IMG/VR virus record: IMGVR_UViG_3300044724_004857
Coordinates: 1 to 34,834 of that record
DNA length: 34,834 nt
DNA from: a virus
Taxonomy: Duplodnaviria; Caudoviricetes
Reading direction: 5' to 3' (one strand)
The notes below the pieces were generated by a model. That model was given only the letters and a program-made list of their open reading frames with translations, ran no database searches and was not told where the DNA came from. This document shows, in pieces, positions 9,913 to 34,723 of this stretch. The stretch's first letter is position 1; every line of letters begins with the position of its first letter. The position numbers were made by a program, and so were the translations under genes.

Positions 9913-9947
9913 ATTTTGTACTTTTAATCATACGGAGAAAGAGGTAG

Positions 9948-10623: not shown

Positions 10624-11250
10624 ATGAACTTGATAAGCATTTATTCAACTCCAATTTGGCAAACAGAATATCCAGAATTTGAAGAAAATAAGACACAATT
10701 TATTCAAGCAATAAGAGACTTAAAAGAAAAAGATCCAGAAGGAGTGAACAAATCAAATCTTTTTGGATATCAATCTTATGAAAGAATTCATGAGGAAGAA
10801 TCTAGAATTCACCCACTTCTTCATTATATTGGAGAACTGGCAGTTAAGGGAGCAGAAGATCTTGGATTTATCTCTGTTGATGTTGCAATCACATCTGTAT
10901 GGTTTAATATTAATGATAGTCGTCAGTGTATGAATGCAGAACATACTCATGGAGATACATTCTCTGGAGTATTTTATCTTAAGGCACCAGAAGGTAGTGG
11001 AAAGTTAGTTCTACAAAATCCAGGTATTAATAGATTGTGGCAAGGACTTTCTTTGGTTGAAAAGAAAAATCAATTTACTGGAGAAAAGATTTGTATTACT
11101 CCAGTAGAAGGTAATATTGTAATGTTCCCTTCATATCTTCCACATTGGGTAGAACCTAATGATCATGACGATGAAAGGATTTCAATTTCTTTCAATGCAA
11201 TTTGTCTTCCTGAAGGTTCATTAGGAGTTCCACATCAAAATGCAGAATAG
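10624..11250 (+). CDS. 2OG-Fe(II) oxygenase (TIGR02466-like)
   Basis: WFNIN...HTH...FSGVFYL...FPSYLPHWVEPN...RISISFN signature. Confidence 0.85.
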   Translation: MNLISIYSTPIWQTEYPEFEENKTQFIQAIRDLKEKDPEGVNKSNLFGYQSYERIHEEESRIHPLLHYIGELAVKGAEDLGFISVDVAITSVWFNINDSRQCMNAEHTHGDTFSGVFYLKAPEGSGKLVLQNPGINRLWQGLSLVEKKNQFTGEKICITPVEGNIVMFPSYLPHWVEPNDHDDERISISFNAICLPEGSLGVPHQNAE

Positions 11251-12049: not shown

Positions 12050-12050
12050 C

Positions 12051-14548: not shown

Positions 14549-15528
14549 GTACTGTAATTGTTATCAGTGGTGGAGTTGGAAGGGCAGTAGCAGCAATACC
14601 AGCACTTCTAAAGTATCATAAAAATCATCTAGATGAAGAGTGGTATGTGATGGTTCATGGTTGGGATTTTATGTTCTGGGGATTTCCAGAACTTCAGGAA
14701 AGAACATTTAATCCTGATGATAAGTCGGTGTTTAAAAATTACTTTTGGAATGCTACTAAAGTTCTCGTGCCAGAACCATATTGCCTTCCCGCATACTATA
14801 GGAATGAGATCTCATTAAGAGAAGCATTTGATATTGAAATTAATGGTTCTACTGATGATTTGCCAGAAATGCAGTTGAAGCTTTCTATGACTGAAATTAG
14901 AAGTGGTCATAGAGTCATTGCAGAAGCAAAGAACCAACAAAAGAAAAATAAAACCATAGTAATTCAACCTTATGGAAGTGCGGCACTCATATGTCCATTA
15001 GAAATCTTTGATGATACTCTAAGATCCATTCCACAAAAAATGTATCTGACTCTCGTCAAAAAACTATCAAAAGATTATAATATCATCTATATGGGTGCAA
15101 AGGAGTTTTATGATGGAAAAACATATAAACCAGATCCAGATCCATCATTAAGAGAATGGGCAGGAGTAATTAAAGTCGCAGATTACTTTATTGGATGTGA
15201 TAGTTGTGGTCAACATTTTGCAAAGGCAGTAGGTCAAAATGCCTCTGTAATGGTCGCAGGAACCCATAAGAACAACACCACATATCCTGATACATTTCAT
15301 ATTATTGAGAGGGATCATAAGTTTCATCCAGATGCTATGAGAGTCTCACAAATTCAAGCACAACTTTCTACAAGATTGAATGAGGAAAGGTGTATGTTCA
15401 CTGATGAAGAGATTGAGAGTGCCTATCAAACTATTATTCAAAGAATTGAGGGTAAAAAGAAAGTTGAGATTAATGAGATTGAAGAATGGAAAACCAATTT
15501 GAATCAACAAAACTTACTTTATAACTAA
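14545..15528 (+). CDS. Glycosyltransferase family 9 (heptosyltransferase)-like protein
   Basis: N-terminal GGVGR.V.AIPAL, IVIQPYG and ADYFIGCDSCGQHFAKA (GT9 DS-x3-H-x-A motif). Confidence 0.7.
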   Translation: MSTVIVISGGVGRAVAAIPALLKYHKNHLDEEWYVMVHGWDFMFWGFPELQERTFNPDDKSVFKNYFWNATKVLVPEPYCLPAYYRNEISLREAFDIEINGSTDDLPEMQLKLSMTEIRSGHRVIAEAKNQQKKNKTIVIQPYGSAALICPLEIFDDTLRSIPQKMYLTLVKKLSKDYNIIYMGAKEFYDGKTYKPDPDPSLREWAGVIKVADYFIGCDSCGQHFAKAVGQNASVMVAGTHKNNTTYPDTFHIIERDHKFHPDAMRVSQIQAQLSTRLNEERCMFTDEEIESAYQTIIQRIEGKKKVEINEIEEWKTNLNQQNLLYN

Positions 15529-15530
15529 TC

Positions 15531-17150
15531 ATGAATATTTTATCAATCAACTATGGACTTCATGATTCATCTGCTTGTATTTTAAAAGACGGTAAAGTTG
15601 CAGTTTATTTTAAGGAAGAAAGGTTGAGTGGGATAAAAAGGGACAATAGTCCTAAATTTGCAATAGATAGATGCATAAAAAACTTTAATGAAAAAATAGA
15701 CGATACTCTGGTCATCTCATATCCAAATTCCAAACCATATAGAAAACTGACATCTAAATTCTCAAATACAAACAATAATATAGTTGAATTTAGTTATAAT
15801 CATCATTTATGCCATGCAAGTTTGGCATTTTACAATAGTGGATTTGAAAAATCTGTTGTAGTAGTTGTAGATGGTCAAGGTTCAATTTATGCAGATAATT
15901 TGATAGAATCTGAGACAGTTTATCTTGCTTCTTACCCATATAATTTTGAGTGTCTAATTAAAAACCTGTCAACCAAAAAACAATCTTCTAGTGAAAAGTA
16001 TAAAGATAATATAGTTCCTCATAAAAATTATGAATGCAATATTAATGAAAATGAGGGTGGTATAGTTAATGTTTATAATACTGCATCGAGTTTAATATCT
16101 CAAGGAGTTCTTGAGAATGGAAAAACTATGGGATTAAGTTCTTATGGCTCTAAAACAAGTTATCCAAACTTTTTTAATGAAAGTTCTCAACCAGATTGGA
16201 GTTTATTTACAGACAAAAAACCACATAAAAGATTACTTAAAGGTCATGAAGATGAAGTAACTGAAGAACTTACTGAAGAAAATTATAAGTTTTATGCAGA
16301 CTATGCTTATGAAGTTCAAAAACAAACTCAAGAATCAGTTGGAAATTTGATAGAAAAGGCAATTCAAAAAAGTGGTTGTAAAAATGTTTCTATTGTTGGT
16401 GGTTATGGAATGAATATTGTTGCAAATCATTATTATACTCAAAGATTTCCTGATGTGAATTTTTATTTTGAACCAAATTCAGATGATGGTGGTTTATCTA
16501 TCGGTGCCGCTATGTTTTATTATCATGCACTTACAAAAGATAAAACAATTAGACCATTAAAAACTACAGCATTCCATGGTGTTCCATATGATATTTCCCA
16601 ATATAAAGGAAAAACTACATCAGTAGAAGAAATTGCAAAACTTTTATATCAAGATAAATCTGTTGCAGTTTATACTGGATTTGCAGAAACAGGACAAAGA
16701 GCATTAGGAAATAGATCAATCTTATTCAACGCATTGAATCCAAATGCCAAAGAAATTGTCAATGAAATTAAAAATAGAGAGTGGTATAGACCATTTGCTG
16801 CAATGGTTTTAGAAGAAGATGCAAATATCTATTTTGATATGGGAAGGATTAAATCAAGTCCTTTTATGACTATAAGTTTTCCAGTGAGACCAGAATATGT
16901 TTCAGTAATACCTGGAGTAACACATGTAGATAATACTTGTAGAATACAAACTATTTCAAAAGATAATGGTTATGTTTATGACCTTCTTCATGAGTTTAAA
17001 AAACTAACAGGTTATGGTATAATCTTAAATACGAGTTTCAATCTTGCTGGAGATCCACTAGTGGAAACCCCAGAAGATGCAGTTAAAACATTAAATGATT
17101 GTTCTTTAGATTATTTGTGGTTTGAAGAAACACAACAATTATTCGATTAA
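15531..17150 (+). CDS. Second carbamoyltransferase (NodU/CmcH family)
   Basis: HDSSA, EERLS, HHLCHA, DGQG, GKTMGLSSYG, GQRALGNRS, REWYRPFA, HVDNTCRIQT, LNTSFN. Confidence 0.92.
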   Translation: MNILSINYGLHDSSACILKDGKVAVYFKEERLSGIKRDNSPKFAIDRCIKNFNEKIDDTLVISYPNSKPYRKLTSKFSNTNNNIVEFSYNHHLCHASLAFYNSGFEKSVVVVVDGQGSIYADNLIESETVYLASYPYNFECLIKNLSTKKQSSSEKYKDNIVPHKNYECNINENEGGIVNVYNTASSLISQGVLENGKTMGLSSYGSKTSYPNFFNESSQPDWSLFTDKKPHKRLLKGHEDEVTEELTEENYKFYADYAYEVQKQTQESVGNLIEKAIQKSGCKNVSIVGGYGMNIVANHYYTQRFPDVNFYFEPNSDDGGLSIGAAMFYYHALTKDKTIRPLKTTAFHGVPYDISQYKGKTTSVEEIAKLLYQDKSVAVYTGFAETGQRALGNRSILFNALNPNAKEIVNEIKNREWYRPFAAMVLEEDANIYFDMGRIKSSPFMTISFPVRPEYVSVIPGVTHVDNTCRIQTISKDNGYVYDLLHEFKKLTGYGIILNTSFNLAGDPLVETPEDAVKTLNDCSLDYLWFEETQQLFD

Positions 17151-19597: not shown

Positions 19598-20113
19598 ATG
19601 AATAACTATTACACCTACATGTATTGTAGAGAGGATGGAACCCCCTACTATATTGGTAAAGGTAAGACAACCAGGATACATTCTGACAGACACACAGTAG
19701 GTCTCCCTCCTAAAGAAAGGAGAAAGTTTCTGAAAACCTGTCTAACAGAAGAAGAAAGTCTGAGACATGAAAAATACATGATAAGTGTATTGGGAAGAAA
19801 AGATATAGGAACAGGCCTGTTACACAATAGGACTGATGGGGGAGAAAGTGGTGGAAGGGGTTGTATCCCCTCTGAAGAAACCAGAAAGAAAATGAGGGAA
19901 AAGAAGTGCGGAGAAAATAACCCTAACTGGAAAGGGGGACACTCAAAAAACTACCTCAGAAGAACCTCTAAGAAACCACATAGGAAACCCTCTATCAAGG
20001 AACCCTCTGGACACTGGAGAGGAAAACATATTTCTGAACTAACTCCTGAGGAAAAGGAGGAAAGAAAGTGGGAGATATATGATAAGAGAATGAATACCCT
20101 TAGTAACCTATAA
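19598..20113 (+). CDS. Free-standing GIY-YIG/Seg-like homing endonuclease with NUMOD3-like motif
   Basis: YYTY...PYYIGKG...R...E...N.TDGGE catalytic domain; SEETRKKM...GENNPNW motif; GATAAATA late promoter at 19568-19575. Confidence 0.8.
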   Translation: MNNYYTYMYCREDGTPYYIGKGKTTRIHSDRHTVGLPPKERRKFLKTCLTEEESLRHEKYMISVLGRKDIGTGLLHNRTDGGESGGRGCIPSEETRKKMREKKCGENNPNWKGGHSKNYLRRTSKKPHRKPSIKEPSGHWRGKHISELTPEEKEERKWEIYDKRMNTLSNL

Positions 20114-23840: not shown

Positions 23841-23871
23841 GTTAGTAACCCCCAAAGTGTCCCAGTAGTGA
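23841..23871 (+). repeat. Intergenic cassette element, copy 1
   Basis: GTTAGTAACCCCCAAAGTGTCCCAGTAGTGA. Confidence 0.9.
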
Positions 23872-23885
23872 AACCACCCAAGATT

Positions 23886-24767
23886 ATGAAACTCAATACC
23901 CACCAGCAACACCCAGAGGATATGATCCTGACTGGTGATCTGTCCATCATTGATGAACTCTACAAAGAGAACTTCATCTCGGTAAAAATAGATGGAAGCC
24001 CGGCTGTGGTTTGGGGCACACATCCAGAAAATGGTGAGTTCTTTGTAGGGACTAAATCTGTCTTCAACAAAAAGAAAATCCGTATCTGTTACACCGAAGA
24101 AAATATTAGAGAGTATTACAATCACCAACCAGAAGTTGAGGAAATCCTTCTTGATTGTTTGAAGTATCTCCCTCGTACTGAAGGAGTTTATCAAGGAGAT
24201 TATCTGGGGACAGGAGGATCTGATACATACAAACCTAATACCATTGAATATGTTTTTGATGAGATTGTAACTGAAAACATCATCATTGCTCCTCACACAT
24301 ATTACACTGGTGATTGTCCCCTCTATGAGATGGAAGCTCATTCACTAGAAGGTGAACTTTGTGAGACTAATGATTGTAAGTTCGTTCAACCTTTTGTTGA
24401 CCGTGTAAACTGTAACATTACTGCTCCAGTTATTGACACTAACGACTATACATTCCTCACAGAGAAAGAGGCTTACCAGGCAAAGGTTGCCATCAATGCT
24501 CTTATCAGGTCTGGACAGAAACTTCATGAGGTAGACTTGATTGACATCCTTGGTTCACTCCGACTTGCTAATCTTTACCTACTGGTTGTTGAGATGAAGG
24601 AGGAACTTATGGAGGATATGATTGTCTACAACTGCCCTAAGTCTTACATTGGAGGACTAAAAGTCAATCAAGAAGGGTTTGTTATGTCCACAGAGTATGG
24701 TATGATTAAGCTTGTAAACAGGGACCAGTTCTCTTATGCAAACTTCACACAGGGTAGATTTCAATGA
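23886..24767 (+). CDS. DUF6267-like protein with ligase/nucleotidyltransferase-like motifs
   Basis: NTH..HPED N-terminus, KIDG, YQGD, EGFV, IKLVNR; ATG 23886 lies 45 nt after the start of the repeat element. Confidence 0.6.
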   Translation: MKLNTHQQHPEDMILTGDLSIIDELYKENFISVKIDGSPAVVWGTHPENGEFFVGTKSVFNKKKIRICYTEENIREYYNHQPEVEEILLDCLKYLPRTEGVYQGDYLGTGGSDTYKPNTIEYVFDEIVTENIIIAPHTYYTGDCPLYEMEAHSLEGELCETNDCKFVQPFVDRVNCNITAPVIDTNDYTFLTEKEAYQAKVAINALIRSGQKLHEVDLIDILGSLRLANLYLLVVEMKEELMEDMIVYNCPKSYIGGLKVNQEGFVMSTEYGMIKLVNRDQFSYANFTQGRFQ

Positions 24768-24886
24768 CAGACGAACAACTTCAACAAATGGAACCAGTAG
24801 AACTTGAACGGTTCTTGGAAGAATGTGCCGAGAAGGCCAAAGAATACAAAGTCTCATTTGAATACTACATGGCGGAGTTCGCATGA
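24764..24886 (+). CDS. Small hypothetical protein (40 aa, ...SFEYYMAEFA)
   Basis: Translated by hand; ATGA overlaps on both sides. Confidence 0.55.
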   Translation: MTDEQLQQMEPVELERFLEECAEKAKEYKVSFEYYMAEFA

Positions 24887-25062
24887 CTGAACAACAAAGG
24901 ATTACAAGAGCACTATCACAAGTTGATGATCTAACTACTCTTCTTGAGAATAATGAATGGAAAAACTTTCTATATTCACATCTCATTCCACTCAAATATG
25001 AGTTACAGAGACAACAATGCCTCTTGACTAATCAGACCAATTCCACTAACATTGAAGAGTAA
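24883..25062 (+). CDS. Small hypothetical protein (59 aa)
   Basis: Translated by hand; GGAG RBS, ATGA coupling. Confidence 0.55.
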   Translation: MTEQQRITRALSQVDDLTTLLENNEWKNFLYSHLIPLKYELQRQQCLLTNQTNSTNIEE

Positions 25063-25075
25063 TTAAACCAAACTG

Positions 25076-25309
25076 ATGAAGACCCTTTTTATTGTTGATC
25101 ATTTTGTTCCGTTTCCACAATCAGAATATGGTGGTGTTTGGAATGTTATTGCCGATGATGAAGATGAGTGTTTTGATATAATTACATCTGAAGACGACAG
25201 TAATTATTTTGAGTATTATAGTGTTTTGAGGGAAAATATTAGTAAGGCATATAAATATACTATTACATCCGAGGCAGAATCAGGAATTGTTACCTCATTC
25301 CTTACTTAA
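25076..25309 (+). CDS. Hypothetical phage protein
   Basis: VPFPQSEYGG motif; preceded by TTGACT(25024)-17 nt-TAACAT. Confidence 0.65.
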   Translation: MKTLFIVDHFVPFPQSEYGGVWNVIADDEDECFDIITSEDDSNYFEYYSVLRENISKAYKYTITSEAESGIVTSFLT

Positions 25310-25315
25310 ACTCAT

Positions 25316-25465
25316 ATGTCAAACTATTCAACAGAGTCTCTTTTAGTTGATCTTCAACGAACTATAAAACATCTTGAAGACAATATCAAAGAGAAAAACA
25401 AAGAGATTGAAAATCTTAAAGGCCTAATTTTCAAACTCCAAGACAACATTCAAAAAAGTGACTAA
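25316..25465 (+). CDS. Small coiled-coil protein (49 aa)
   Basis: Translated by hand; fills the gap. Confidence 0.5.
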   Translation: MSNYSTESLLVDLQRTIKHLEDNIKEKNKEIENLKGLIFKLQDNIQKSD

Positions 25466-25469
25466 CTAA

Positions 25470-25769
25470 ATGATTGAACTTGAACTACCCAATGATTTTA
25501 TTCATGATGCTCCAACAGGTTATTCATATTCAGTTAGTGAATTCAAACCCAATGTATTATCCATTTGGTTGAATCATCACGAAGAATATATCTACACAAA
25601 AGAACCTGTTAAAAGTATTTGGGGATTTGTGCGGTTCACAAAGAAGGGTCACAAATACTATTCACCAATCAACTCTAAAAAAGTTGGCAAAGAAATAGAT
25701 ATCAATGAAACACGCCCATTCTCTTCTATGAGACTCCACCTTAATCCTCTAGAGGCGGCATTTTTTTGA
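25470..25769 (+). CDS. Hypothetical phage protein
   Basis: 99-aa ORF (IWGF...PINSKKVG...LNPLEAAF). Confidence 0.65.
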   Translation: MIELELPNDFIHDAPTGYSYSVSEFKPNVLSIWLNHHEEYIYTKEPVKSIWGFVRFTKKGHKYYSPINSKKVGKEIDINETRPFSSMRLHLNPLEAAFF

Positions 25770-26038
25770 TGGAAACCCGTAAAGATCGTATGGCTCACCC
25801 ATATACTCCACAGGTTGATGATTATGTCATCTGGACGCGTCCTGGTGGGACGATTACCCAAGGATGGGTATACTTTGTTGACAGTGAATATATTACTATT
25901 GAGACAGGTGTAAAGGATAAACCTAATTGTGAATATACAAGACATGAGAAACATAAAAAGATTCATATTCTTGTATTATGTCATCCTTGTTTCTGGAATC
26001 AGTTACAGTATATCAAGAACAGAAGAGGTGATGACTAA
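25766..26038 (+). CDS. Hypothetical phage protein
   Basis: PQVDDYVIW...GWVYF...YITIE motif; exact start uncertain. Confidence 0.6.
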   Translation: MMETRKDRMAHPYTPQVDDYVIWTRPGGTITQGWVYFVDSEYITIETGVKDKPNCEYTRHEKHKKIHILVLCHPCFWNQLQYIKNRRGDD

Positions 26039-26061
26039 GTGTAAAATCTATTGACATTATT

Positions 26062-26092
26062 GTTAGTAACCCCCAAAGTGTCCCTATAGTGT
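26062..26092 (+). repeat. Intergenic cassette element, copy 2
   Basis: GTTAGTAACCCCCAAAGTGTCCCTATAGTGT. Confidence 0.9.
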
Positions 26093-26107
26093 AACCAATC
26101 AATCATC

Positions 26108-26320
26108 ATGACGACCCCAATCGTAACTCAGCTCTCAGAAATCCGTGACCAAGTTCGTAAACAGGATTTCAAATGGACTAACGACCAACGCGAACGTTAT
26201 GCAACCCTTATCGATCAACGTCACGCACAAATTGCACAATGGCGTGAAGAAGGTCGTGTCTGGGTAGGCCCTTCTAACATTGGTAAAGAAAAACCACAGG
26301 AGCAAGAATCAGACGATTGA
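26108..26320 (+). CDS. Hypothetical protein
   Basis: 70-aa ORF following the element. Confidence 0.65.
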   Translation: MTTPIVTQLSEIRDQVRKQDFKWTNDQRERYATLIDQRHAQIAQWREEGRVWVGPSNIGKEKPQEQESDD

Positions 26321-26321
26321 T

Positions 26322-26367
26322 AAACTGTCCACTACCTCTTGACTTTCACCAAGTCAGGGGGTATTAT
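26322..26367 (+). promoter_or_regulatory. AACTGTCCAC box + stem-loop sigma70-like promoter
   Basis: TTGACT(26339)-17 nt-TATTAT(26362) within hairpin CCTCTTGACTT/AAGTCAGGGGG. Confidence 0.65.
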
Positions 26368-26368
26368 T

Positions 26369-26399
26369 GTTAGTAACCTCTAAAGTGTTCCTTTAGTAT
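26369..26399 (+). repeat. Intergenic cassette element, copy 3
   Basis: GTTAGTAACCTCTAAAGTGTTCCTTTAGTAT. Confidence 0.9.
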
Positions 26400-26415
26400 A
26401 ACCACCACTTTTGAA

Positions 26416-27600
26416 ATGATTACTCTTCGCCCTCATCAACAACGTGGTTTGGACGCACTAGAGTCCAATGATCGTGGACAAATACTAATCCCAACAGGAG
26501 GAGGAAAAACGCTGATTGCAATCATGGATGCAAAGAGACAATTAGAGACTCAACCTTCCACCATTGTTGTTGTCTGTCCCAGGATTTTGCTTTCTGAGCA
26601 GTTGTGTTCAGAGTTTCTTGAGGTCATTGACACCAAGAATGTTCATGTGCTACATTGTCATAGTGGTGAAACTACTCACTTCAGTTCCACCAGGGCAAAA
26701 GATATTCACCTATTCACCAATGTAGCACGTAGTGAGGGTGAGAGTGTTCTAATCTTCACCACATATCACTCTCTACACCGTGTACAAGAGGCAGACATTG
26801 AAGTCAATACCATTTACTTCGATGAGGCACACAACAGTGTTCAACGCCACTTCTTCCCTCCTACAGAGTTCTTCTCTAACGAAGCAGATCGTTCATACTT
26901 CTTTACTGCAACCCGTAAGACTTCTATCACTATCAATAAGCCTGGTATGAATGACCGTGAGGTTTATGGTGACATTATTTGTCGTGTCTCTGCTCCTGAA
27001 CTTGTTCAAGGTGGATACATTGCTCCACCTAAAATTCATGTGAAAGAGTTTGACATTCACAACAATACCAAACTCATCACTTGTGAAACTGATTGTGAAC
27101 ATCTCATCTCTACTATTGATGAGGTTCAGATGAAGAAACTTCTGGTCTGTGTGAAGACTACCAAACAACTGGTAAATGTCATCACTCATACTGATTTCAC
27201 TACTCAGTTGTCTGACCGTGGTTATTCGTACCTTTATATTACCGCAAAAACTGGTGCAGTTGTTGATGGTAAGAAGGTCAATCGTGAGGAGTTCTTTAAC
27301 GTCCTAAACTCTTGGGGTAAAGATCCCGATAAAAAGTTCGTTGTTCTTCATCGTTCTATTTTGTCAGAGGGTATCTCTGTCAACCGTCTAGATTGTGTTA
27401 TCTTCCTTCGTAATATGGACACTATTGAATTAACTCAGTCGATTGGTCGTGTTCTTCGTACCTGTCCCGATAAGTCCTTTGGGTTATGCGTGGTGCCGAT
27501 TTATAGTAAAGTTGGGATTTCTACACAACGTGCTCTTCAAAATGTTGTTGATACGGTATTTGAAAGAGGTGAGCTCCTTGACAGCGTAGTGCGTAAATAA
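26416..27600 (+). CDS. Superfamily 2 DEAH-box helicase (ResIII-like)
   Basis: LRPHQ, PTGGGKT (Walker A), DEAH, TAT, LSEGI, QSIGRVLR. Confidence 0.9.
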   Translation: MITLRPHQQRGLDALESNDRGQILIPTGGGKTLIAIMDAKRQLETQPSTIVVVCPRILLSEQLCSEFLEVIDTKNVHVLHCHSGETTHFSSTRAKDIHLFTNVARSEGESVLIFTTYHSLHRVQEADIEVNTIYFDEAHNSVQRHFFPPTEFFSNEADRSYFFTATRKTSITINKPGMNDREVYGDIICRVSAPELVQGGYIAPPKIHVKEFDIHNNTKLITCETDCEHLISTIDEVQMKKLLVCVKTTKQLVNVITHTDFTTQLSDRGYSYLYITAKTGAVVDGKKVNREEFFNVLNSWGKDPDKKFVVLHRSILSEGISVNRLDCVIFLRNMDTIELTQSIGRVLRTCPDKSFGLCVVPIYSKVGISTQRALQNVVDTVFERGELLDSVVRK

Positions 27601-27604
27601 GGTT

Positions 27605-27720
27605 CAGTCATACCAAGGGTTTTGGGGGTATCAAAAACCCCTTTTTCCATATCGAACCCGTTTATGACCTAACACACCTTCATTCGCACAGAATTATTGA
27701 AAAATCAGTTTATGAAACTA
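27605..27720. repeat. ~116-bp tripartite site, copy 1
   Basis: Three conserved blocks with the same spacing as 32690-32805. Confidence 0.75.
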
Positions 27721-27921
27721 ATTGAACACAGAAGTGATATCCTAGATTCCAAAGTTCGGGAACTAGGATTCATTGTAGGTAAAGATGATGAGTATGCAGC
27801 CATACCTTTGACAGGTAGTGAGACCAAGTTGGTTATCATTCATAAGGGTAATATTTTGAAGACTTGTCGTAACCGAAAGGCAGCACTTACCTTTATCAAA
27901 AAACATTCTAAAACTAAATAA
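27712..27921 (+). CDS. Hypothetical protein
   Basis: ~69-aa ORF; start uncertain (ATG 27712 or TTG 27697). Confidence 0.55.
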   Translation: MKLIEHRSDILDSKVRELGFIVGKDDEYAAIPLTGSETKLVIIHKGNILKTCRNRKAALTFIKKHSKTK

Positions 27922-27942
27922 GACATAGGATAAAGAAAGAAG

Positions 27943-28875
27943 ATGAAGACCTTTCAACAATTTAACGAAGATGCACAGGTAGGCCCATCGTCTTTCGGTG
28001 GTGATAAGGGTTGGAGTAATACACAAATGAAAGGTTTTAGTAATAAAATTGATAGTGTAAGAAAGGCTCCTGTAAAATTGGTGAAGGATCTTTACAACGC
28101 CAAGAAAGAAGCAGAGGAAGAGAGAGAAAACGAACAAAGAAAGATTGACATCTATAACAAGAAGATGCAAGATAGTAAGAAAATTGCAAAACTTGAAAAA
28201 CAAATTGATAATATAACGAAGAAAGACCAACAACAAACTACTGATAAGAAACCTACACCTACACAACAAACCAATGAAGTTTATGATCCTGAAATTCAAT
28301 CAAGGTCACAGATTCGTAAGACTGGTGAAGGTGGAAGAGTAGGAAGAGACCGTAGAAAGAGTGAACCAGAACGTCGTAGAATGAAGGCCACTGGTGGTGG
28401 TAAGTCTGAACCAGTTAGCTATAAGGATCGTAAGGACATTGGTAGTCAGAAACAAGCAAGCACCCGTCAACAACAACCAGAAAAATCAAGAGGTTCTGAA
28501 GAAGTCAAACAATCATATGCTGATAAGGTTAAGGCAGAAAGAAAGGCCGCAGCATTGGCAAGACGCCAGGCCAAATCAGGTGGTGGAGAGGTAAAGAAAA
28601 CCACCACATCTTCTAAAGATGCTGAGAAACAAGCATCCAAACTTCTGACCAAGAAGACACCAGAGAAGAAAGTTGATCCTGATTATAAACCAGCCAAGGC
28701 GTCTGGACTTACTCGTAAAGAGAGAATGTCCCAGCAACGTAAGGGTGAAACCATGTTGCGTGGTATATTTAAAGACCAAGAAACTGACAAATACCGCAAG
28801 GCAACGGGCAAGAATCCCGATGCCAAAGGTAGAACCAAGATTATGGGTAGAGTGCACAAACGGATGAGTTCCTAA
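27943..28875 (+). CDS. Lys/Arg-rich late protein, possible internal head protein
   Basis: ACTAAATA at 27913-27920; MKTFQQFNE N-terminus; highly charged. Confidence 0.6.
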   Translation: MKTFQQFNEDAQVGPSSFGGDKGWSNTQMKGFSNKIDSVRKAPVKLVKDLYNAKKEAEEERENEQRKIDIYNKKMQDSKKIAKLEKQIDNITKKDQQQTTDKKPTPTQQTNEVYDPEIQSRSQIRKTGEGGRVGRDRRKSEPERRRMKATGGGKSEPVSYKDRKDIGSQKQASTRQQQPEKSRGSEEVKQSYADKVKAERKAAALARRQAKSGGGEVKKTTTSSKDAEKQASKLLTKKTPEKKVDPDYKPAKASGLTRKERMSQQRKGETMLRGIFKDQETDKYRKATGKNPDAKGRTKIMGRVHKRMSS

Positions 28876-28911
28876 ATTATATGTGGGCGGTCAATGTGTC
28901 TTGGCGGAGTG

Positions 28912-28948
28912 TTGACGTAAGACCCAAAATATGATATAATTCTAAATA
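28912..28948 (+). promoter_or_regulatory. Sigma70 promoter plus adjacent late promoter for the second endonuclease
   Basis: TTGACG-17 nt-TATAAT (with TG extension), immediately followed by TCTAAATA. Confidence 0.7.
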
Positions 28949-28968
28949 GTATGTCCGCCAAGACAACT

Positions 28969-29640
28969 ATGAAAGAATATTATACTTATGCCTATCTTCG
29001 CGAAGATGGAACACCTTACTACATAGGGAAAGGTCAAGGAGATAGAATAACTAGAAAACACTATCGTAGGGATGGTGGATATTTTAGTGCCCCAAAGGAT
29101 ACGAATAGAATATTATATCTGAAACGAAATCTGTCAGAACAAGAGGCATTTAGACACGAACAATATATGATTAGTGTCTATGGGCGTAAAGATATTGGCA
29201 CAGGCATACTACGAAACCGCACAGATGGTGGTGAAGGTCCGACTGGCAAAGTTTTAAGTGAAGAAACAAAGAAAAGGATTAGTGAGTTTCAAAGGGGCAA
29301 ACCTAAATGGTCTGACGCCGATAAAGAAAGAATTAAACAACAAGTCACAGGCAGATGGGAAACATATAGTGAAGAGAAGAAAGATATTATTAGACAAAAA
29401 CTAAAAGAGAATCACGGTGGTGGTTCTTCGGGTGATAGAAATGCCAAGTCAATAGGGTGGCGAATTTATCATAAATGTGGTAAAATAACGGAGATGGTAG
29501 GTATATCTAATTGGGCAAAATCTAATGGTTACATTCAGGCACATATAATTGCGGTAAGAGATGGTAAGAGAAAGTATCACAAAGACATCATAAAGGTGGA
29601 GAGACTAAATAAAAATATAATCAAAGTAACCAGTTTTTGA
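28969..29640 (+). CDS. Free-standing GIY-YIG/Seg-like homing endonuclease with NUMOD3-like motif
   Basis: YYTYAYLREDGTPYYIGKG...EAFRHE...NRTDGGEG; SEETKKRIS; ATG 28969 aligns with the paralog start. Confidence 0.8.
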   Translation: MKEYYTYAYLREDGTPYYIGKGQGDRITRKHYRRDGGYFSAPKDTNRILYLKRNLSEQEAFRHEQYMISVYGRKDIGTGILRNRTDGGEGPTGKVLSEETKKRISEFQRGKPKWSDADKERIKQQVTGRWETYSEEKKDIIRQKLKENHGGGSSGDRNAKSIGWRIYHKCGKITEMVGISNWAKSNGYIQAHIIAVRDGKRKYHKDIIKVERLNKNIIKVTSF

Positions 29641-29685
29641 ACTGTCACAAACCCTCTTGACTTTTTGTCAGAAGGGTTTTATAGT
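29640..29685 (+). promoter_or_regulatory. AACTGTCAC box + stem-loop sigma70-like promoter
   Basis: TTGACT(29657)-17 nt-TATAGT(29680) within hairpin ACCCTCTTGAC/GTCAGAAGGGT. Confidence 0.65.
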
Positions 29686-29691
29686 ATGCAT

Positions 29692-29883
29692 ATGAACTAC
29701 CAACAACTGACAGATACAATCTATCCAGACTTTGTTGAATACACTCTGGATAAACATTCAAAAGAAATAAAAGATTTGTACAGGGGTTTCATTGATGAAT
29801 ATCTCAATGAAAGTCTTGGTGAGTTGAATCCAAAGACACGCAACAAACTGACAAAAGAGTTACTTGATCGACTTATTCGGTGA
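29692..29883 (+). CDS. Hypothetical protein (possibly leaderless)
   Basis: ATG 6 nt after the -10 box; alternative ATG 29686. Confidence 0.55.
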   Translation: MNYQQLTDTIYPDFVEYTLDKHSKEIKDLYRGFIDEYLNESLGELNPKTRNKLTKELLDRLIR

Positions 29884-29890
29884 TATTATT

Positions 29891-29921
29891 GTTAGTAACC
29901 TCTAAAGTGTCCCTGTAGTGT
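29891..29921 (+). repeat. Intergenic cassette element, copy 4
   Basis: GTTAGTAACCTCTAAAGTGTCCCTGTAGTGT. Confidence 0.92.
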
Positions 29922-29936
29922 AACCACTCAATTATT

Positions 29937-30515
29937 ATGACCACCACTTATCAACAATTTGTTGATGATCTTCATTCTATCCCTGATAAAGTTTTTATCG
30001 ATTTTCTAATTGAATGTAAGAAAATTTATATGAGATATTCTGGAGTAGGACTTTATAATTTTGTCAAAGGTCATAAGGTTGAACATGAATTTGTGAAATA
30101 TGTTAAATCATATATTGACTTGAGAGCCAGTAAAAAACAATCACCAGATGATCCCGATTGTGTTTATGGTGAGAATTATCTCCCAGATATTAAAACAAAG
30201 CAAGATGGTCTTAAGACAAAGAAAAATGGCGAATTTTATGCAAATCCATGGATCTTAAAGAATCCCTATTCAAATAAAGATGTTTTTACAACTAGGGCAG
30301 ACTCATATATCTTAATTGATCCCACTTGTAACAAAATTGCGGTCGTTGATTCAGAATATTTCTCTGGATGTTTTAATAATCAAAACTCAACTACTTGTTA
30401 TTTCAATGTATGTCGAGATCAAGTTGACATGATTTTTGATGGTACCGGCAAAATTCCTTATGTCGAACCAATTGAACCCATCAGTGAGTATGATTTAATG
30501 GAGTCAATTCCATGA
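29937..30515 (+). CDS. Hypothetical protein, possible PD-(D/E)xK nuclease
   Basis: G..VE...DPD-x9-DIK pattern. Confidence 0.5.
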   Translation: MTTTYQQFVDDLHSIPDKVFIDFLIECKKIYMRYSGVGLYNFVKGHKVEHEFVKYVKSYIDLRASKKQSPDDPDCVYGENYLPDIKTKQDGLKTKKNGEFYANPWILKNPYSNKDVFTTRADSYILIDPTCNKIAVVDSEYFSGCFNNQNSTTCYFNVCRDQVDMIFDGTGKIPYVEPIEPISEYDLMESIP

Positions 30516-30523
30516 ATGTTATT

Positions 30524-30554
30524 GTTAGTAACCTCTAAAGTGTCCCTGTAGTGT
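30524..30554 (+). repeat. Intergenic cassette element, copy 5
   Basis: Identical to copy 4. Confidence 0.92.
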
Positions 30555-30571
30555 AACCACTCAATCAACTC

Positions 30572-30913
30572 ATGACTCTCACTCAATCCAAAACTGAATA
30601 TCTGACTGAGGCTCTCATTGAACAACTGAATAACCGTGAGAAGGTCAACTCTATTGAATCTTCAAGATCCTGTTACACCAACTTTGAGTATGAAGTTGGT
30701 CGTAAGTATATCAAAGTCTGGTCTTATTTGATCTCTGATGGTGAGAAACTCCGTGGTCGTTCTTGCTTCATGTTTGTAGAAAAAGAGACTGGTGCAGTTC
30801 TGAAACCTGCTTCACATCGTGCGCCTGCCAAAGGCATTAGGTTCTACATTGATTTCCTGGCTGATCACCCTGAGGTTGTTGATCAATACGGTTCCTTCCT
30901 TTATCTTCGTTGA
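30572..30913 (+). CDS. Hypothetical phage early protein
   Basis: GRKYIKV...FVEKETG.VLKPAS..APAKG.R motif. Confidence 0.7.
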   Translation: MTLTQSKTEYLTEALIEQLNNREKVNSIESSRSCYTNFEYEVGRKYIKVWSYLISDGEKLRGRSCFMFVEKETGAVLKPASHRAPAKGIRFYIDFLADHPEVVDQYGSFLYLR

Positions 30914-30920
30914 GATTATT

Positions 30921-30951
30921 GTTAGTAACCTCCAAAGTGTCCCTGTAGTAT
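30921..30951 (+). repeat. Intergenic cassette element, copy 6
   Basis: GTTAGTAACCTCCAAAGTGTCCCTGTAGTAT. Confidence 0.92.
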
Positions 30952-30965
30952 AACCACCCAATCAA

Positions 30966-31169
30966 ATGCCACTTTCTGAATCCACTGTCTCACGAATTGT
31001 TGATGCACTCAAAGATGACATCATTGAACACATTTACTTGAACGAGAAATATAATGAAGTTATGCGTCAATGTATTGAAGAGGCATTAGATGCCAAAATG
31101 GGTGAGATGGATGAAGATCTATATTTTGACCTTGGTATGTGTTTATACGAACGAATTGAATTGAAATAA
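30966..31169 (+). CDS. Hypothetical acidic protein
   Basis: 67-aa ORF exactly between two elements. Confidence 0.65.
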   Translation: MPLSESTVSRIVDALKDDIIEHIYLNEKYNEVMRQCIEEALDAKMGEMDEDLYFDLGMCLYERIELK

Positions 31170-31170
31170 A

Positions 31171-31201
31171 GTTAGTAACCTCTAAAGTGTCCCTGTAGTA
31201 T
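31171..31201 (+). repeat. Intergenic cassette element, copy 7
   Basis: GTTAGTAACCTCTAAAGTGTCCCTGTAGTAT. Confidence 0.92.
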
Positions 31202-31222
31202 AACCACTCGCCAATCAATCAA

Positions 31223-31390
31223 ATGAGCATCTATGTAAGATTCGATTCAGCTGAATATGATGAACCACAGTTCATCGGTCCATTTGAAACCGAAGAGGAT
31301 GCTGATGATTATGCAGACTATCAGAACACAGGTCTTTCACTAAATGGTGTTCCTGGTCATGTTGCATCCTATTCTGTATCTGGTTGTTGA
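31223..31390 (+). CDS. Small hypothetical protein (55 aa, MSIYVRFDSAEYDEPQFIGPFETEEDADDY...)
   Basis: Translated by hand; fills the space between two elements. Confidence 0.65.
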   Translation: MSIYVRFDSAEYDEPQFIGPFETEEDADDYADYQNTGLSLNGVPGHVASYSVSGC

Positions 31391-31397
31391 CATTATT

Positions 31398-31428
31398 GTT
31401 AGTAACCTCTAAACTGTCTCTATAGTAT
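31398..31428 (+). repeat. Intergenic cassette element, copy 8
   Basis: GTTAGTAACCTCTAAACTGTCTCTATAGTAT. Confidence 0.9.
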
Positions 31429-31448
31429 AACCACTCTCCCCCAACACC

Positions 31449-31640
31449 ATGAGCAACACTATCAAACAAGAATCTGTTGATCTAATGGCAGAACAACTTT
31501 ATCAACAGATGGTACAACATGTTGATAATGACAACTATGGTAATTCTGACGCCATTCATTCTGAATGGGTTGTTGATGGTAAAGACCCCGAAGATGGTGA
31601 ATATGAGTTCATGTTCATTGACTATCTCTCACAAGTTTAA
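31449..31640 (+). CDS. Hypothetical acidic protein
   Basis: 63-aa ORF following the element. Confidence 0.65.
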   Translation: MSNTIKQESVDLMAEQLYQQMVQHVDNDNYGNSDAIHSEWVVDGKDPEDGEYEFMFIDYLSQV

Positions 31641-31664
31641 TTTACATCACACACAAACTAAATC

Positions 31665-32210
31665 ATGAAAAAGTTTCTCACCTCTGTTATTGCAGGCGCT
31701 TCTGTTATTTTCACACCAGGATCAGCCATTGCTGGTAACACTTATGAAGACCATGTAGATCTCTTTAACGCACTCAACGAAGTTGGTATTATTGTCAGCA
31801 TCAACTCCAAACTTCATTGTAGGTCTGGCGTAGATGGTAAGTATAATACAAGGTCAGGTATGTTGATTGTATGTCAAGACAATGGCGTTCCTGGTGGCCC
31901 TCAAGTAACCTGGACTTTAAATGACTTAGACACACTTAGACATGAATCTCATCATGTTGTTCAGGACTGTAATGAGGGAACAATTGCAGATGGGTTAACG
32001 GATAACCTTTTTTATGAAGAACAAGAGTTAATTGAATTTATCTCAAAGTCATCACTTACTACAGAACAATTAAAAAATCTGATGGAGTCATTAAAAAATG
32101 ATGGACTGAGTTACACCTCAATCATGATTGAAGTTGAGGCATACATTGTAGCAAAAGATGTTGATGCATCAACTATTGCCTCTAAAGTCAGGGAGTTCTG
32201 TACCCTCTGA
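31665..32210 (+). CDS. Secreted HEXXH metallopeptidase-like protein
   Basis: Signal peptide MKKFLTSVIAGASVIFTPGSAIA; TLRHESHHVVQDC; EVEAY. Confidence 0.65.
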   Translation: MKKFLTSVIAGASVIFTPGSAIAGNTYEDHVDLFNALNEVGIIVSINSKLHCRSGVDGKYNTRSGMLIVCQDNGVPGGPQVTWTLNDLDTLRHESHHVVQDCNEGTIADGLTDNLFYEEQELIEFISKSSLTTEQLKNLMESLKNDGLSYTSIMIEVEAYIVAKDVDASTIASKVREFCTL

Positions 32211-32340
32211 TTGATGGGCATATGTAACATGTTTTGGTGTGGTTACCTTGTTACATTGTAAGACCCATGTAGTAGAGGCATCAATCACATAATTGTGGTG
32301 GTTATAGTGATTGAGTAAGGCCTCATTGTTGGATAATAAA

Positions 32341-32371
32341 GTTAGTAACCTCTAAAGTGTCCCTGTAGTGT
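32341..32371 (+). repeat. Intergenic cassette element, copy 9
   Basis: Identical to copy 4. Confidence 0.92.
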
Positions 32372-32384
32372 AACCGCAACAATT

Positions 32385-32585
32385 ATGATGACATTTCTCA
32401 ACTGGGTTCAAGAAGCAATTGGTTGTAAAGTAGAAGACGAAAAAACTGGAATGGTTCATACCATTACCGGTGGTAAGTTTCTCGCTGATTCACCTTTGTG
32501 GCCTATGATTCAACTTACGGATGAGAATGGAGTTGTAAGATATGCAACTCTTGATAGGTTTGAAGAACTGATCTCTGTGGGGTAA
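32385..32585 (+). CDS. Hypothetical protein
   Basis: 66-aa ORF following the element. Confidence 0.65.
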   Translation: MMTFLNWVQEAIGCKVEDEKTGMVHTITGGKFLADSPLWPMIQLTDENGVVRYATLDRFEELISVG

Positions 32586-32612
32586 GTTTTGAATTGATAA
32601 GATAACACTTTC

Positions 32613-32637
32613 ACCCTCTCTTTGAGAGGGTTTTTTT
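32613..32637 (+). terminator. Rho-independent terminator
   Basis: ACCCTCTC-TTT-GAGAGGGT followed by a T-run. Confidence 0.8.
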
Positions 32638-32689
32638 ATGCGTAGAGATCATCACTCACCAGATAGAACAAATCTACTACTTCAGACCC

Positions 32690-32805
32690 CAGTGGTACCA
32701 GGGGCTCTCACGATATCAAAAACTCTTTTTTCCATATCGGGGGTTTTCAGGTGTGATAGGTCGTTTGACCCGATAAAATTATGGAAAAATCAGTTTATGA
32801 CACTA
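32690..32805. repeat. ~116-bp tripartite site, copy 2
   Basis: Matches 27605-27720; contains a 21-bp imperfect inverted repeat 32716-32736 / 32780-32800. Confidence 0.75.
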
Positions 32806-32824
32806 ACTGGTTCCGGGTATTATT

Positions 32825-32855
32825 GTTAGTAACCTCTAAAGTGTTCCATTGATAT
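32825..32855 (+). repeat. Intergenic cassette element, copy 10 (3' part diverged)
   Basis: GTTAGTAACCTCTAAAGTGTTCCATTGATAT. Confidence 0.85.
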
Positions 32856-32873
32856 AGTCTACTACAAAACCAC

Positions 32874-33437
32874 ATGCCTAAGGCCATCACAAGTTTTGAT
32901 CAAACCAAAATTGGAAGAAATTTAGAATCATATTACAATCTTCTCAAACTAATTGGCGGCTCTTTGAAAACTGAAAATGAAGAGTTTGTCAATGATATAG
33001 TAAACATTCTTGATGACACTATTTTTAATGCCGCCAGTAGTGTTTATTTCAGAAGTAATTTGATATCGGAAACCGCTAACCAACAACGTACAGATGGTGA
33101 AGTCATATTAGACGATCTGTGTAAACAACACAGATATCCTAGGAAATTGTCAACCGCATATATTTTTGATAATATATGTAACTGGAACATTGATGAGTTT
33201 AGAGAAGATATCATAAGATTGTCAGTGTTCGACATGACAACCAAGGAAGAGAATCAAGCATTGAAACCCTTTCAGAAGAGTGAAATCTTCAATATGGATA
33301 AGCCACTTGAACCTTATGATAAACTCGGTATAAAGATGGTAAAGTGTGATTGGCTTAAAGGTAAAAGAAAAGATGAACAACCACACATCTATGAAGAGAG
33401 GGTAGACTTATTTGGAAACACCTACTACACCACATAA
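32874..33437 (+). CDS. Hypothetical protein
   Basis: 187-aa ORF between elements; QHRYPRK...TTKEENQ.L weakly nuclease-like. Confidence 0.65.
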   Translation: MPKAITSFDQTKIGRNLESYYNLLKLIGGSLKTENEEFVNDIVNILDDTIFNAASSVYFRSNLISETANQQRTDGEVILDDLCKQHRYPRKLSTAYIFDNICNWNIDEFREDIIRLSVFDMTTKEENQALKPFQKSEIFNMDKPLEPYDKLGIKMVKCDWLKGKRKDEQPHIYEERVDLFGNTYYTT

Positions 33438-33485
33438 GTCTGCCCTCTCTTCCACTCGAATCACTTCAACCTTTCTTCTATTATT

Positions 33486-33516
33486 GTTAGTAACCTCTAA
33501 AGTGTCCCTATAGTAT
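33486..33516 (+). repeat. Intergenic cassette element, copy 11
   Basis: GTTAGTAACCTCTAAAGTGTCCCTATAGTAT. Confidence 0.92.
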
Positions 33517-33700
33517 GAGAACACCTTCAAACAACCCCTACGTGAACAACCTAGTCGAAATGGGTTATGATCAACAAGACTGCGAAGTCGCATCAACAAT
33601 GTTTCAAAAGAAAACGTTTCCATGTGTAATCCATGGTCGTTCATTTGATACTGAAGAGCAGTATCTTGAGGAACTCCAAGAGTTTCTGAATGGTAACTAA
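33515..33700 (+). CDS. Hypothetical protein
   Basis: 61-aa ORF whose ATG overlaps the end of the element; start uncertain. Confidence 0.55.
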   Translation: MRTPSNNPYVNNLVEMGYDQQDCEVASTMFQKKTFPCVIHGRSFDTEEQYLEELQEFLNGN

Positions 33701-33704
33701 CATT

Positions 33705-33735
33705 GTTAGTAACCTCTAAACTGTCCCTGTAGTAT
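33705..33735 (+). repeat. Intergenic cassette element, copy 12
   Basis: GTTAGTAACCTCTAAACTGTCCCTGTAGTAT. Confidence 0.92.
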
Positions 33736-33753
33736 GAGAACACCTTCAAACTA

Positions 33754-33906
33754 ATGCGTTACACAAACCCCTCTGGTCAAGAGTACATTTTTCCTTATTC
33801 AATCTCCCGTGAAGAAGCACTACAACGTATGGAAGAATATGAAAAGAAAGTAGAACAAGATGAACGTTCTGGACAACAATTATTCGATGATATGTTCGGA
33901 GGTTGA
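33754..33906 (+). CDS. Small hypothetical protein (50 aa, MRYTNPSGQEY...QLFDDMFGG)
   Basis: Translated by hand. Confidence 0.6.
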   Translation: MRYTNPSGQEYIFPYSISREEALQRMEEYEKKVEQDERSGQQLFDDMFGG

Positions 33907-33914
33907 TTAACATT

Positions 33915-34076
33915 ATGCAAGAGACTAAGTTTATTCTTCACGGTCAATTTCATCGCTCTGGTTGGGTTATGAACGACAGTTTAAGTTACATCAAACTCAC
34001 AAAAGAGGAAGCAATTGTAACATGTAACCGTATTAATCCCAACTTTGTAATTCAATCTGTTACCATCGAAAAGTGA
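33915..34076 (+). CDS. Small hypothetical protein (53 aa)
   Basis: Translated by hand; GGAGG RBS. Confidence 0.55.
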   Translation: MQETKFILHGQFHRSGWVMNDSLSYIKLTKEEAIVTCNRINPNFVIQSVTIEK

Positions 34077-34078
34077 TT

Positions 34079-34210
34079 ATGAGAATTGCATTCACTGTTT
34101 TAGTTGTCATCCTAGGTGCTAATCTAATGATTGACTTATTAGATTCAAGTATGGTAAAACTCATTCAAGAACGTAATGAAACACTTCAAAGAAGTCTTGA
34201 TTCGATGTAA
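34079..34210 (+). CDS. Small protein with N-terminal hydrophobic helix (43 aa)
   Basis: Translated by hand (MRIAFTVLVVILGANLMIDLL...). Confidence 0.5.
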   Translation: MRIAFTVLVVILGANLMIDLLDSSMVKLIQERNETLQRSLDSM

Positions 34211-34215
34211 TTATT

Positions 34216-34246
34216 GTTAGTAACCTCTAAAGTGTCCCTGTAGTGT
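34216..34246 (+). repeat. Intergenic cassette element, copy 13
   Basis: Identical to copy 4. Confidence 0.92.
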
Positions 34247-34263
34247 AACCACGTTTCTAAACT

Positions 34264-34521
34264 ATGTCTATCACCATCAAATACGATTTTTTCTCTGATC
34301 ATTCACTTACTGCAGTAGCAGAAGTATGTGAGATTGCAAATGTAACACCACTATCTGTTACATTCAATTCTACAATGCATGATAATGTAAGTGTGGAGTT
34401 TGTCGATCAAAAGGACGCAATCCTTTTCAGTGAGGTATATCTTGGATCAACAGATCCTTCTGATATTCAAGAGTATGTTGGTTCTGAAACTCCTCTTGGA
34501 GAGGAAGTATATGGTGGTTAA
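34264..34521 (+). CDS. Hypothetical acidic protein
   Basis: 85-aa ORF exactly between two elements. Confidence 0.65.
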   Translation: MSITIKYDFFSDHSLTAVAEVCEIANVTPLSVTFNSTMHDNVSVEFVDQKDAILFSEVYLGSTDPSDIQEYVGSETPLGEEVYGG

Positions 34522-34525
34522 TAAA

Positions 34526-34556
34526 GTTAGTAACCTCTAAAGTGTTCCTATAGTAT
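34526..34556 (+). repeat. Intergenic cassette element, copy 14
   Basis: GTTAGTAACCTCTAAAGTGTTCCTATAGTAT. Confidence 0.92.
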
Positions 34557-34641
34557 AGGGTTCAGACTTCTCTTTCCTACTTCTCTCCAATCGGATTGTT
34601 TCTAGGTATTGTTTCTCTGAACTATTCTGAGTCTTTCTTCA

Positions 34642-34719
34642 ATGATCAAAACCAAAAAAGAATGGTCTAAAGTCTACGCTAACTTCTATTCTATTGTTTT
34701 AATTCTGATTCTTCTTTGA
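34642..34719 (+). CDS. Possible 25-aa membrane peptide
   Basis: MIKTKKEWSKVYANFYSIVLILILL, translated by hand. Confidence 0.3.
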   Translation: MIKTKKEWSKVYANFYSIVLILILL

Positions 34720-34723
34720 CATC

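Follow-up and report, generated by a model that had tools for sequence, protein, structure and literature searches.

A repeated promoter-like element in T4-like cyanophages and a co-varying basic phage protein that may read it

What joins the small genes in a plastic region of a T4-like cyanophage, and what reads the sequence that joins them? The question is raised by a stretch of 34,834 nucleotides, IMG/VR virus record IMGVR_UViG_3300044724_004857 (at its full length called the window), in which a 31-bp element precedes one small gene unit after another. A previous sequence-only reading saw in the element a combined promoter/operator and recombination site of an integron-like cassette array. 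Our analysis leads to a different account, which we regard as reasonably probable: the element is a phage-specific early promoter that is read by a co-evolving, probably injected phage protein, and it doubles as a recombination linker. The candidate reader is a basic protein encoded at positions 27943-28875, which co-varies with the element and was left out of the sequence-only account.

As that account had reported, there are 14 copies of the element, all on the plus strand (Table 1). Twelve differ from the consensus at no more than 3 positions, a level that no stretch in 100 shuffles reached, and the copies at 23841 and 32825, with 4 and 5 mismatches, complete the set; the minus strand of the window holds no copy, even if 9 mismatches are allowed. 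The arrangement of the copies was also described correctly. Their first 10 nucleotides are identical in 14 of 14, a stop codon lies 1-8 nucleotides before eight copies from 29891 on (gaps of 7, 8, 7, 1, 7, 4, 5 and 4), an ATG stands at element position +45 to +53 in 12 of 14, and in all 14 the leader is without a word resembling a Shine-Dalgarno (SD) sequence. The element itself folds weakly (-0.7 to -8.9 kcal/mol). A terminator-like hairpin is found directly upstream of two of the 14 copies, and upstream folding reaches z < -2 in three. The copies at 23841 and 26369 have both a hairpin and a canonical promoter match (TTGAAA/TTGACT-17-TATTAT) just upstream.

The element belongs to a family whose right half and left box (+1 to +10) differ in distribution. 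In the cyanophages SynMITS9220M01, S-B05, RN05-S, RB11-B and S-SM2, we found 11-13 copies each, which resemble those of the window in the right half and differ from them in the left box. Right-half matches in the complete genomes of SynMITS9220M01 and S-SM2 are confined to the small-gene region and to a single strand, which we count in favor of a promoter role; the Syn9 and S-SKS1 genomes do not contain the right half. The exact right half is present in about 390 stored IMG/VR stretches. The palindrome GTTA-G-TAAC, to which the sequence-only reading drew attention, exists in the window but is not general, as it accompanies the common right half in 23 of 242 distinct contexts; judged by sequence comparison, it is specific to a lineage. 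Because most left boxes are not palindromic, we rejected the palindrome as the functional core. Inside a locus, left boxes are uniform (587 of 595 matches located by the right half alone), and on both flanks of the basic-protein gene they agree in 70 of 71 loci. At one locus (L417), a single element departs from the resident type in having a foreign left box, and it may belong to a recently acquired unit that has not been converted.

Element and protein occur together. Two separate protein queries match the same 10 of 50,697 phage records, corresponding to 8 distinct phages, all of which have the element; the protein, which is new here, is found only in element-carrying phages. For the Prochlorococcus phage P-TIM68, we predicted the window's left box from the C-terminus of the protein, and 13 copies with this box were found, joined to a different right half. 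When IMG/VR loci were picked by the protein, the element was present in 80 of 80 (67 strict matches and 13 variants), and in further protein loci a loose scaffold detected it in 121 of 133, with at least two copies in 104. Conversely, contigs picked by the element contain the protein in 23 of 40 cases. Among those that include the helicase gene of the region, the figure is 22 of 29; the remaining 7 helicase contigs end less than 700 bp from the upstream side of the helicase. In a related set of Syn9-type loci, 0 of 78 hold the element or the protein.

Moreover, the left box and the protein change jointly. Of 221 protein loci, 180 have at least two similar copies of the element, and 76 representatives with less than 85% identity were used for this analysis. 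Among 200 protein columns in these representatives, residue 262 ranks first in association with the left box. Methionine at this residue goes with TA or TT at +6/+7 (20 of 20), lysine with GG at +6/+7 (16 of 16), glutamine with A at +6 (12 of 12) and aspartate with C at +7 (13 of 13, across two unrelated box families). Contacts of the kinds Asp-C, Lys-G, Gln-A and Met-T are well known between helices and bases. Residues 262, 265 and 266 lie on one helix in the predicted structure, and the N-terminal part of the protein does not track the left box. On a tree of the helicase (107 rows), there are 29 box changes and 32 changes of residue 262, with 28 shared; on the tree of the protein's own N-terminal part, 30 of 34-35 changes are shared, and on the DUF6267 tree, 20 of 21-22. 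Independent pairs do not change in the opposite direction on any of the trees. On the helicase tree, they change in the same direction in 8 of 8, 9.5 of 11, 6 of 6 and 6 of 6 cases (p 0.002-0.03); on the DUF6267 tree, two of the pair tests have only 4 pairs. It is important to consider that the trees were built quickly and that the underlying genes recombine. In loci L420, L421 and L490, where an insertion had misaligned residue 262, it was reassigned manually, and a wrong box call for L468 was left in the co-variation analyses.

The protein has no match to a Pfam, PHROG or PADLOC family. The ESM Atlas returned solely unnamed viral clusters (<0.9), and homolog searches gave no named protein. 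A structure model is confident only for two C-terminal helices, and fold searches found nothing informative, the matches being generic helix pairs (best Z 6.6, root-mean-square deviation 2.3, 55 aligned). Its N-terminus and its basic charge both resemble those of T4 internal proteins, as judged by likeness of pattern. In the available text of PMC9026906, N-terminal capsid-targeting sequences are described as bringing basic proteins into the T4 head. Some homologs (L318, L319, L320, L322, L325, L328 and L365) have long C-terminal extensions, reaching 350-506 amino acids in total.

We propose that the protein is packaged in the head and would be injected with the DNA, that its C-terminal helix would then bind the left box, and that the bound protein would switch on the array genes through host RNA polymerase. 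The near-identical copies would at the same time act as linkers for homologous recombination, at which gene units could be gained, lost and swapped. Our confidence varies among these steps: direct binding of the left box by the protein seems to us highly likely, packaging in the head likely, and activation rather than repression rather likely. That the array genes are early is presumed from their position and from the literature. We also consider, tentatively and at somewhat less than an even chance, a broader version: the clade would inject its own sequence-specific activator, which opens a private class of non-sigma70 promoters; helix and promoter copies would have been jointly re-keyed dozens of times by a readable code (D-C, K-G, Q-A, M-T/A), and recombination between copies would both re-key the array and shuffle genes.

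The site at which transcription starts is suggested by ATG codons at +30, as in the copies at 33486 and 33705. Such an ATG is in frame with the gene of the unit in 35 of 38 cases, compared to 35 of 114 copies that have that frame but no ATG at +30; within this lineage, 20 of 21 unit families have it in frame. A set that is larger but redundant gives 91 of 93 in frame; there the +30 base is a purine in 385 of 385 copies, with T at +29 imposed by the search pattern. For 12 of the 38 genes, no further in-frame ATG follows within the next 15 codons. The in-frame +30 ATG thus points to a 5' end at or just before +30, to leaderless translation and to a non-sigma70 arrangement, and we think it moderately probable that transcription starts there and not at the distance set by a sigma70 -10 box. 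This makes the TRTAGT that the sequence-only reading proposed as -10 doubtful, even though TAnnnT at +26 to +31 fits an ordinary -10 box; its remark that TTGACA is missing holds, since no -35 match lies inside the element. Other candidates were rejected. An upstream TAWWGT (-4 to +2) is strong in this lineage and absent in S-SM2, so it is not a general -10 box, and the promoter matches that the minus strand shows across several copies (9 of 12) are not conserved. The end of the element resembles a T7 promoter, but no T7-type polymerase is encoded: single-subunit RNA polymerase (PF00940) has no match in four complete cyanophage genomes, with a positive T7 control and no search for an N4-type virion polymerase. 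An alternative phage sigma factor was likewise discarded, as the single PF04542 match per genome, beside a UvsW-type helicase gene, reads by its position as the late sigma factor.

As to recombination, the exact pattern is found in 63 stretches on 36 IMG/VR contigs, of which two (L015 and L026) are more than 99% identical to the window and not independent of it. When the contigs are cut at the element, units are present, absent or reordered between relatives. In 14 close relatives there are six types of events with both ends inside elements: presence or absence of unit 4, a swap of units 4 and 5, presence or absence of unit 10, and three extra units, each equipped with an element of its own. 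Three of these types recur in 2-4 contigs each, and the swap and two insertions are found on one contig each. Copies share identical blocks of up to 47 bp (median 20), shorter than a read, so misassembly is unlikely. T4 recombination requires less than 50 bp of homology, according to the available text of Arbiol et al. (PMC2839356), and both complete element-carrying genomes have UvsY. One crossover interval lies before +13, others at +14 to +29 or +18 to +24, and one after +38, with gene conversion blurring these limits.

Several observations weigh against the account that we favor, and they are best considered together with the rival explanations. Most of the basic protein is predicted to be disordered, with a mean predicted local distance difference test score (pLDDT) of 67, and its capsid-targeting likeness is a loose pattern match. 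At residue 262, arginine (10), leucine (4) and alanine (1) are mixed, with arginine and leucine occurring with several boxes, and GG boxes are also found with leucine or alanine. The S-B43 record (L510) has the element and no homolog of the protein; it is broken at the place where the gene is expected. As for the start, out-of-frame ATGs at +16, +25 and +28 mostly reach a nearby stop and are a weak control. In addition, the TAnnnT hexamer at +26 to +31 is intact in 111 of 135 copies, the others being largely those of unit 1 with an upstream sigma70 match, and A is common at +36 (286 of 385 copies). These two features are as expected if the protein were a repressor or a DNA-organizing binder, and the element a host-sigma promoter (-10 TAGTRT at +26 to +31, start at about +37) with an operator in the -35 position for later shut-off. 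The evidence from co-variation fits this equally. We nevertheless consider it unlikely, since a start at about +37 would remove the +30 ATG, which is nearly always in frame and in 12 of 38 cases without an alternative, the element has no -35 match, and a capsid-targeted protein would already be there when the array genes must turn on. If instead host factors alone read the promoter, the match with the protein would reflect linkage and the common ancestry of the early region. The protein gene does sit within the array, the loci were chosen by sequence similarity, and other C-terminal columns share 22-26 box changes versus 28 for residue 262. However, uniform boxes within loci that are the same on both flanks of the gene argue against plain linkage, and the N-terminal part of the protein does not follow them. 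The roughly 28 joint changes of box and residue on trees of two neighboring genes with zero opposite pairs, the same left box in a Prochlorococcus phage, and the recurrence of the D-C pairing at +7 in a second, unrelated box family also make this explanation improbable.

Two further explanations concern the element as something other than a promoter. It might be an RNA signal bound by the protein, with +30 a processing site in a read-through transcript. This would suit the sharp step from T to purine at +29/+30, the selection on frame that begins exactly there, and a protein that is basic and largely disordered. However, the element has no Rfam match besides its weak folding, and nearly all its conserved bases precede the step, which is the layout of a DNA promoter, so that we find this explanation extremely improbable. 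Alternatively, the element could be the target of site-specific, integron-like recombination, with the basic protein or an unrecognized enzyme acting at the left box. The first 10 nucleotides are indeed invariant within a lineage, and the switch between units falls inside the element. We judge this very improbable. The sequence-only reading saw no recombinase in the window, and this extends to the two complete element-carrying genomes: neither these nor three fragments contain a tyrosine (PF00589) or serine (PF00239) recombinase, with controls detected in 14 of 14 and 12 of 14, respectively. The crossover intervals are incompatible with a single base, and a comparable exchange, the insertion of a 58-amino-acid gene (L022:6321-6507, in a reversed locus), used a translation leader duplicated on either side of the gene, without any element. 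Breaks are also not significantly enriched at elements (10 of 13 element junctions broken versus 6 of 14 other gene junctions, p=0.12; over all contigs, 18 of 27 versus 15 of 26, p=0.58). This last point bears equally on the linker role that we propose, as do three others: the swap of units 4 and 5 comes from a single metagenome contig (L016); two elements are not used by any event in 23841-29890 nor, within the dense part, by 5-6 events (about half); and cultured S-B05, RN05-S and RB11-B have one-ended breaks at the element without a clean element-to-element indel. What can be kept from the sequence-only reading is therefore a PeSL-like promoter before exchanged units, with six element-to-element event types among the synteny breaks that it anticipated, but neither an excess of breaks over other junctions nor a dedicated integron-like site. 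Given no enrichment, no fixed crossover base and no recombinase, shuffling is likely a by-product of homologous recombination; we expect with good confidence that the agent is the general T4-type recombination machinery, acting in a PeSL-like manner in a region that is plastic anyway.

Among known systems, the closest for shuffling are the PeSL/PmSL cassettes of RB49/phi1, T4/PST and KVP40/nt-1. As far as the available text of PMC2839356 and PMC4122927 describes them, these are promoter-like linkers that recur between small genes of unknown function in hyperplastic regions of T4-like phages, with indels and exchanges that map to the linkers and without a known dedicated recombinase. The present element likewise sits between ORFans of a T4-like phage, in a hyperplastic region. 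In contrast to the PeSL/PmSL descriptions available, most copies here have no stem-loop, all 14 are without an internal sigma70-like -35/-10 pair and SD, and there is a lineage-specific box with a co-varying phage protein. The element thus works like a PeSL for shuffling, is not one by stem-loop, sigma70 boxes and SD, and is not an integron. The accessible part of Puxty et al. (PMC4503421) judges PeSLs to be sparse in S-PM2. Like integron attC arrays, the locus strings gene units together head to tail and places a repeat wherever two of them meet, but it has no integrase, no long imperfect hairpin, variable crossovers and a promoter-like position of the repeat before the gene.

For the proposed activation, the nearest parallel is the T4 middle promoter with its MotA box, read by MotA with AsiA (available text of PMC5780444). 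Common to both would be a phage protein that binds a box lying some 20-35 bp before the transcription start and brings in host polymerase. Unlike MotA as described there, the basic protein showed no sequence or fold link to a known family in the searches made, looks capsid-targeted, and has predicted recognition residues that, with the box, switch repeatedly among relatives. It shares with T4 IpII/IpIII and Alt a basic character, an N-terminus like a capsid-targeting sequence and, by prediction, injection with the DNA. The likeness is limited to the N-terminus, and the portions available of PMC9026906 do not describe those proteins as sequence-specific DNA binders, although Alt is said there to favor phage early promoters. 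To judge from the available text of PMC7029224 and PMC5780444, T4-like cyanophages lack alt, modA/B, asiA and motA, and against this background a candidate driver of their phage-specific early transcription is of interest.

A phage-specific motif before early genes is not in itself without precedent in T4-like cyanophages. For Syn9 and its relatives, Doron et al. 2016 reportedly describe a new early regulatory element, and the present motif class may already be listed there, in the main text or the supplement, e.g., for S-SM2. Repeats in the small-gene region of Syn9 share the word AASTGTC; however, they are paired in inverted orientation, a long way before a -10-like box, and Syn9 has neither the element nor the protein. 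A literature search that covered subscription journals thinly found no account of the element or protein. Sites of this Syn9 type, AASTGTCMC, often as an inverted pair and upstream of a -10-like box, form a second class in the window (19328, 20169, 23794, 26323 and 29640), and those at 23794 and 26323 sit directly upstream of element copies.

Our analysis offers a candidate protein, a predicted binding site and a residue-to-base code from which swap predictions follow, and cultured phages are available for testing them (S-SM2, P-TIM68, SynMITS9220M01 and S-B05). Cassette shuffling on its own would be a modest extension of PeSLs. If the proposal as a whole is true, it adds a virion-delivered activator to the biology of T4-like phages; private promoter keys would matter in co-infection and for which foreign units can be expressed, and a few orthogonal activator-promoter pairs would become available for use in cyanobacteria.

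The window represents part of a T4-like cyanophage genome, and almost every match is to myophages of Synechococcus and Prochlorococcus. The array is the region of small genes that surrounds those for the SF2 helicase and DUF6267, a region that in related genomes is flanked by tail-fiber and baseplate genes. The host-takeover or anti-defense role that the sequence-only reading suggested for these genes is conjectural: most array units received no function in family searches, and PADLOC and Rfam gave no match. DNA of the window is present in estuarine and marine metagenomes, with no RNA dataset among the listed sources. Logan contigs from 4 runs span the array, including unit 10 at full identity; as k-mer contigs, they branch at the repeat.

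Table 1. Positions in the window of the element copies, the candidate reader and neighboring features.
Feature	Position	Strand	Remarks
Element copy 1	23841..23871	+	before DUF6267 gene; degenerate right end; upstream sigma70-type match
Element copy 2	26062..26092	+	before 70-amino-acid gene
Element copy 3	26369..26399	+	before gene for SF2 helicase (26416-27600); immediately preceded by hairpin and TTGACT-17-TATTAT
Basic protein, 310 amino acids, isoelectric point 10.1	27943..28875	+	candidate reader of left box
N-terminus like T4 IpII/IpIII capsid-targeting sequence	27943..27975	+	in 162/168 homologs; only such open reading frame among 69 in the window
Predicted helix, residues 258-288, pLDDT ~90	28714..28806	+	residues 262 (28726-28728) and 265/266 co-vary with +6/+7
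Homing-endonuclease-like gene	28951..29640	+	absent in most close relatives; gain/loss unrelated to element
Element copy 4	29891..29921	+	633-bp unit; missing in L013, L022, L003; behind unit 5 in L016
Element copy 5	30524..30554	+	before DUF7717 gene
Element copy 6	30921..30951	+	consensus match
Element copy 7	31171..31201	+	site of extra unit with own element in L013, L038, L044, L051
Element copy 8	31398..31428	+	consensus match
Element copy 9	32341..32371	+	site of extra 321-bp unit in L016
Intrinsic-terminator-like hairpin	32613..32640	+	end of unit 9
Element copy 10, degenerate	32825..32855	+	661-bp unit missing in L013, L016, L025, L038
Element copy 11	33486..33516	+	ATG of the gene is +30 of the element
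Element copy 12	33705..33735	+	+30 ATG opens 6-codon open reading frame, stop overlapping next ATG; copy absent in L025, L038
Element copy 13	34216..34246	+	site of extra 471-bp unit in L038
Element copy 14	34526..34556	+	followed by non-coding stretch, the start of which recurs in other lineages

Some additional features of the locus deserve mention. The first bases of the non-coding stretch behind copy 14 (34557-34723) recur after the element in L028, L046, L048, S-B05, RN05-S and RB11-B; the stretch has no Rfam match and is possibly a small RNA. A second non-coding repeat is present in two copies of about 78% identity, one after the helicase gene (27605-27700) and one before element copy 10 (32690-32806). 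The homing-endonuclease-like gene has a relative in the window, at 19598-20113, and genes of this kind occupy other array positions in relatives L003, L028, L030 and L043. The S-B43 record, at 202,000-213,993, looks scrambled, with the array split, the DUF6267 gene truncated and structural genes on alternating strands. Outside the array, at 8071-10544, four tandem paralogues of 143-198 amino acids with a Cys/Trp-rich C-terminal domain stand behind a tail-fiber-like gene; their DNA is 75-95% identical in blocks, and they are possibly variable receptor-binding tips. Finally, the region 11240-17150, with a G+C content of 30-32%, contains open reading frames that, read by eye, resemble a sulfotransferase, two carbamoyltransferases and a glycosyltransferase.

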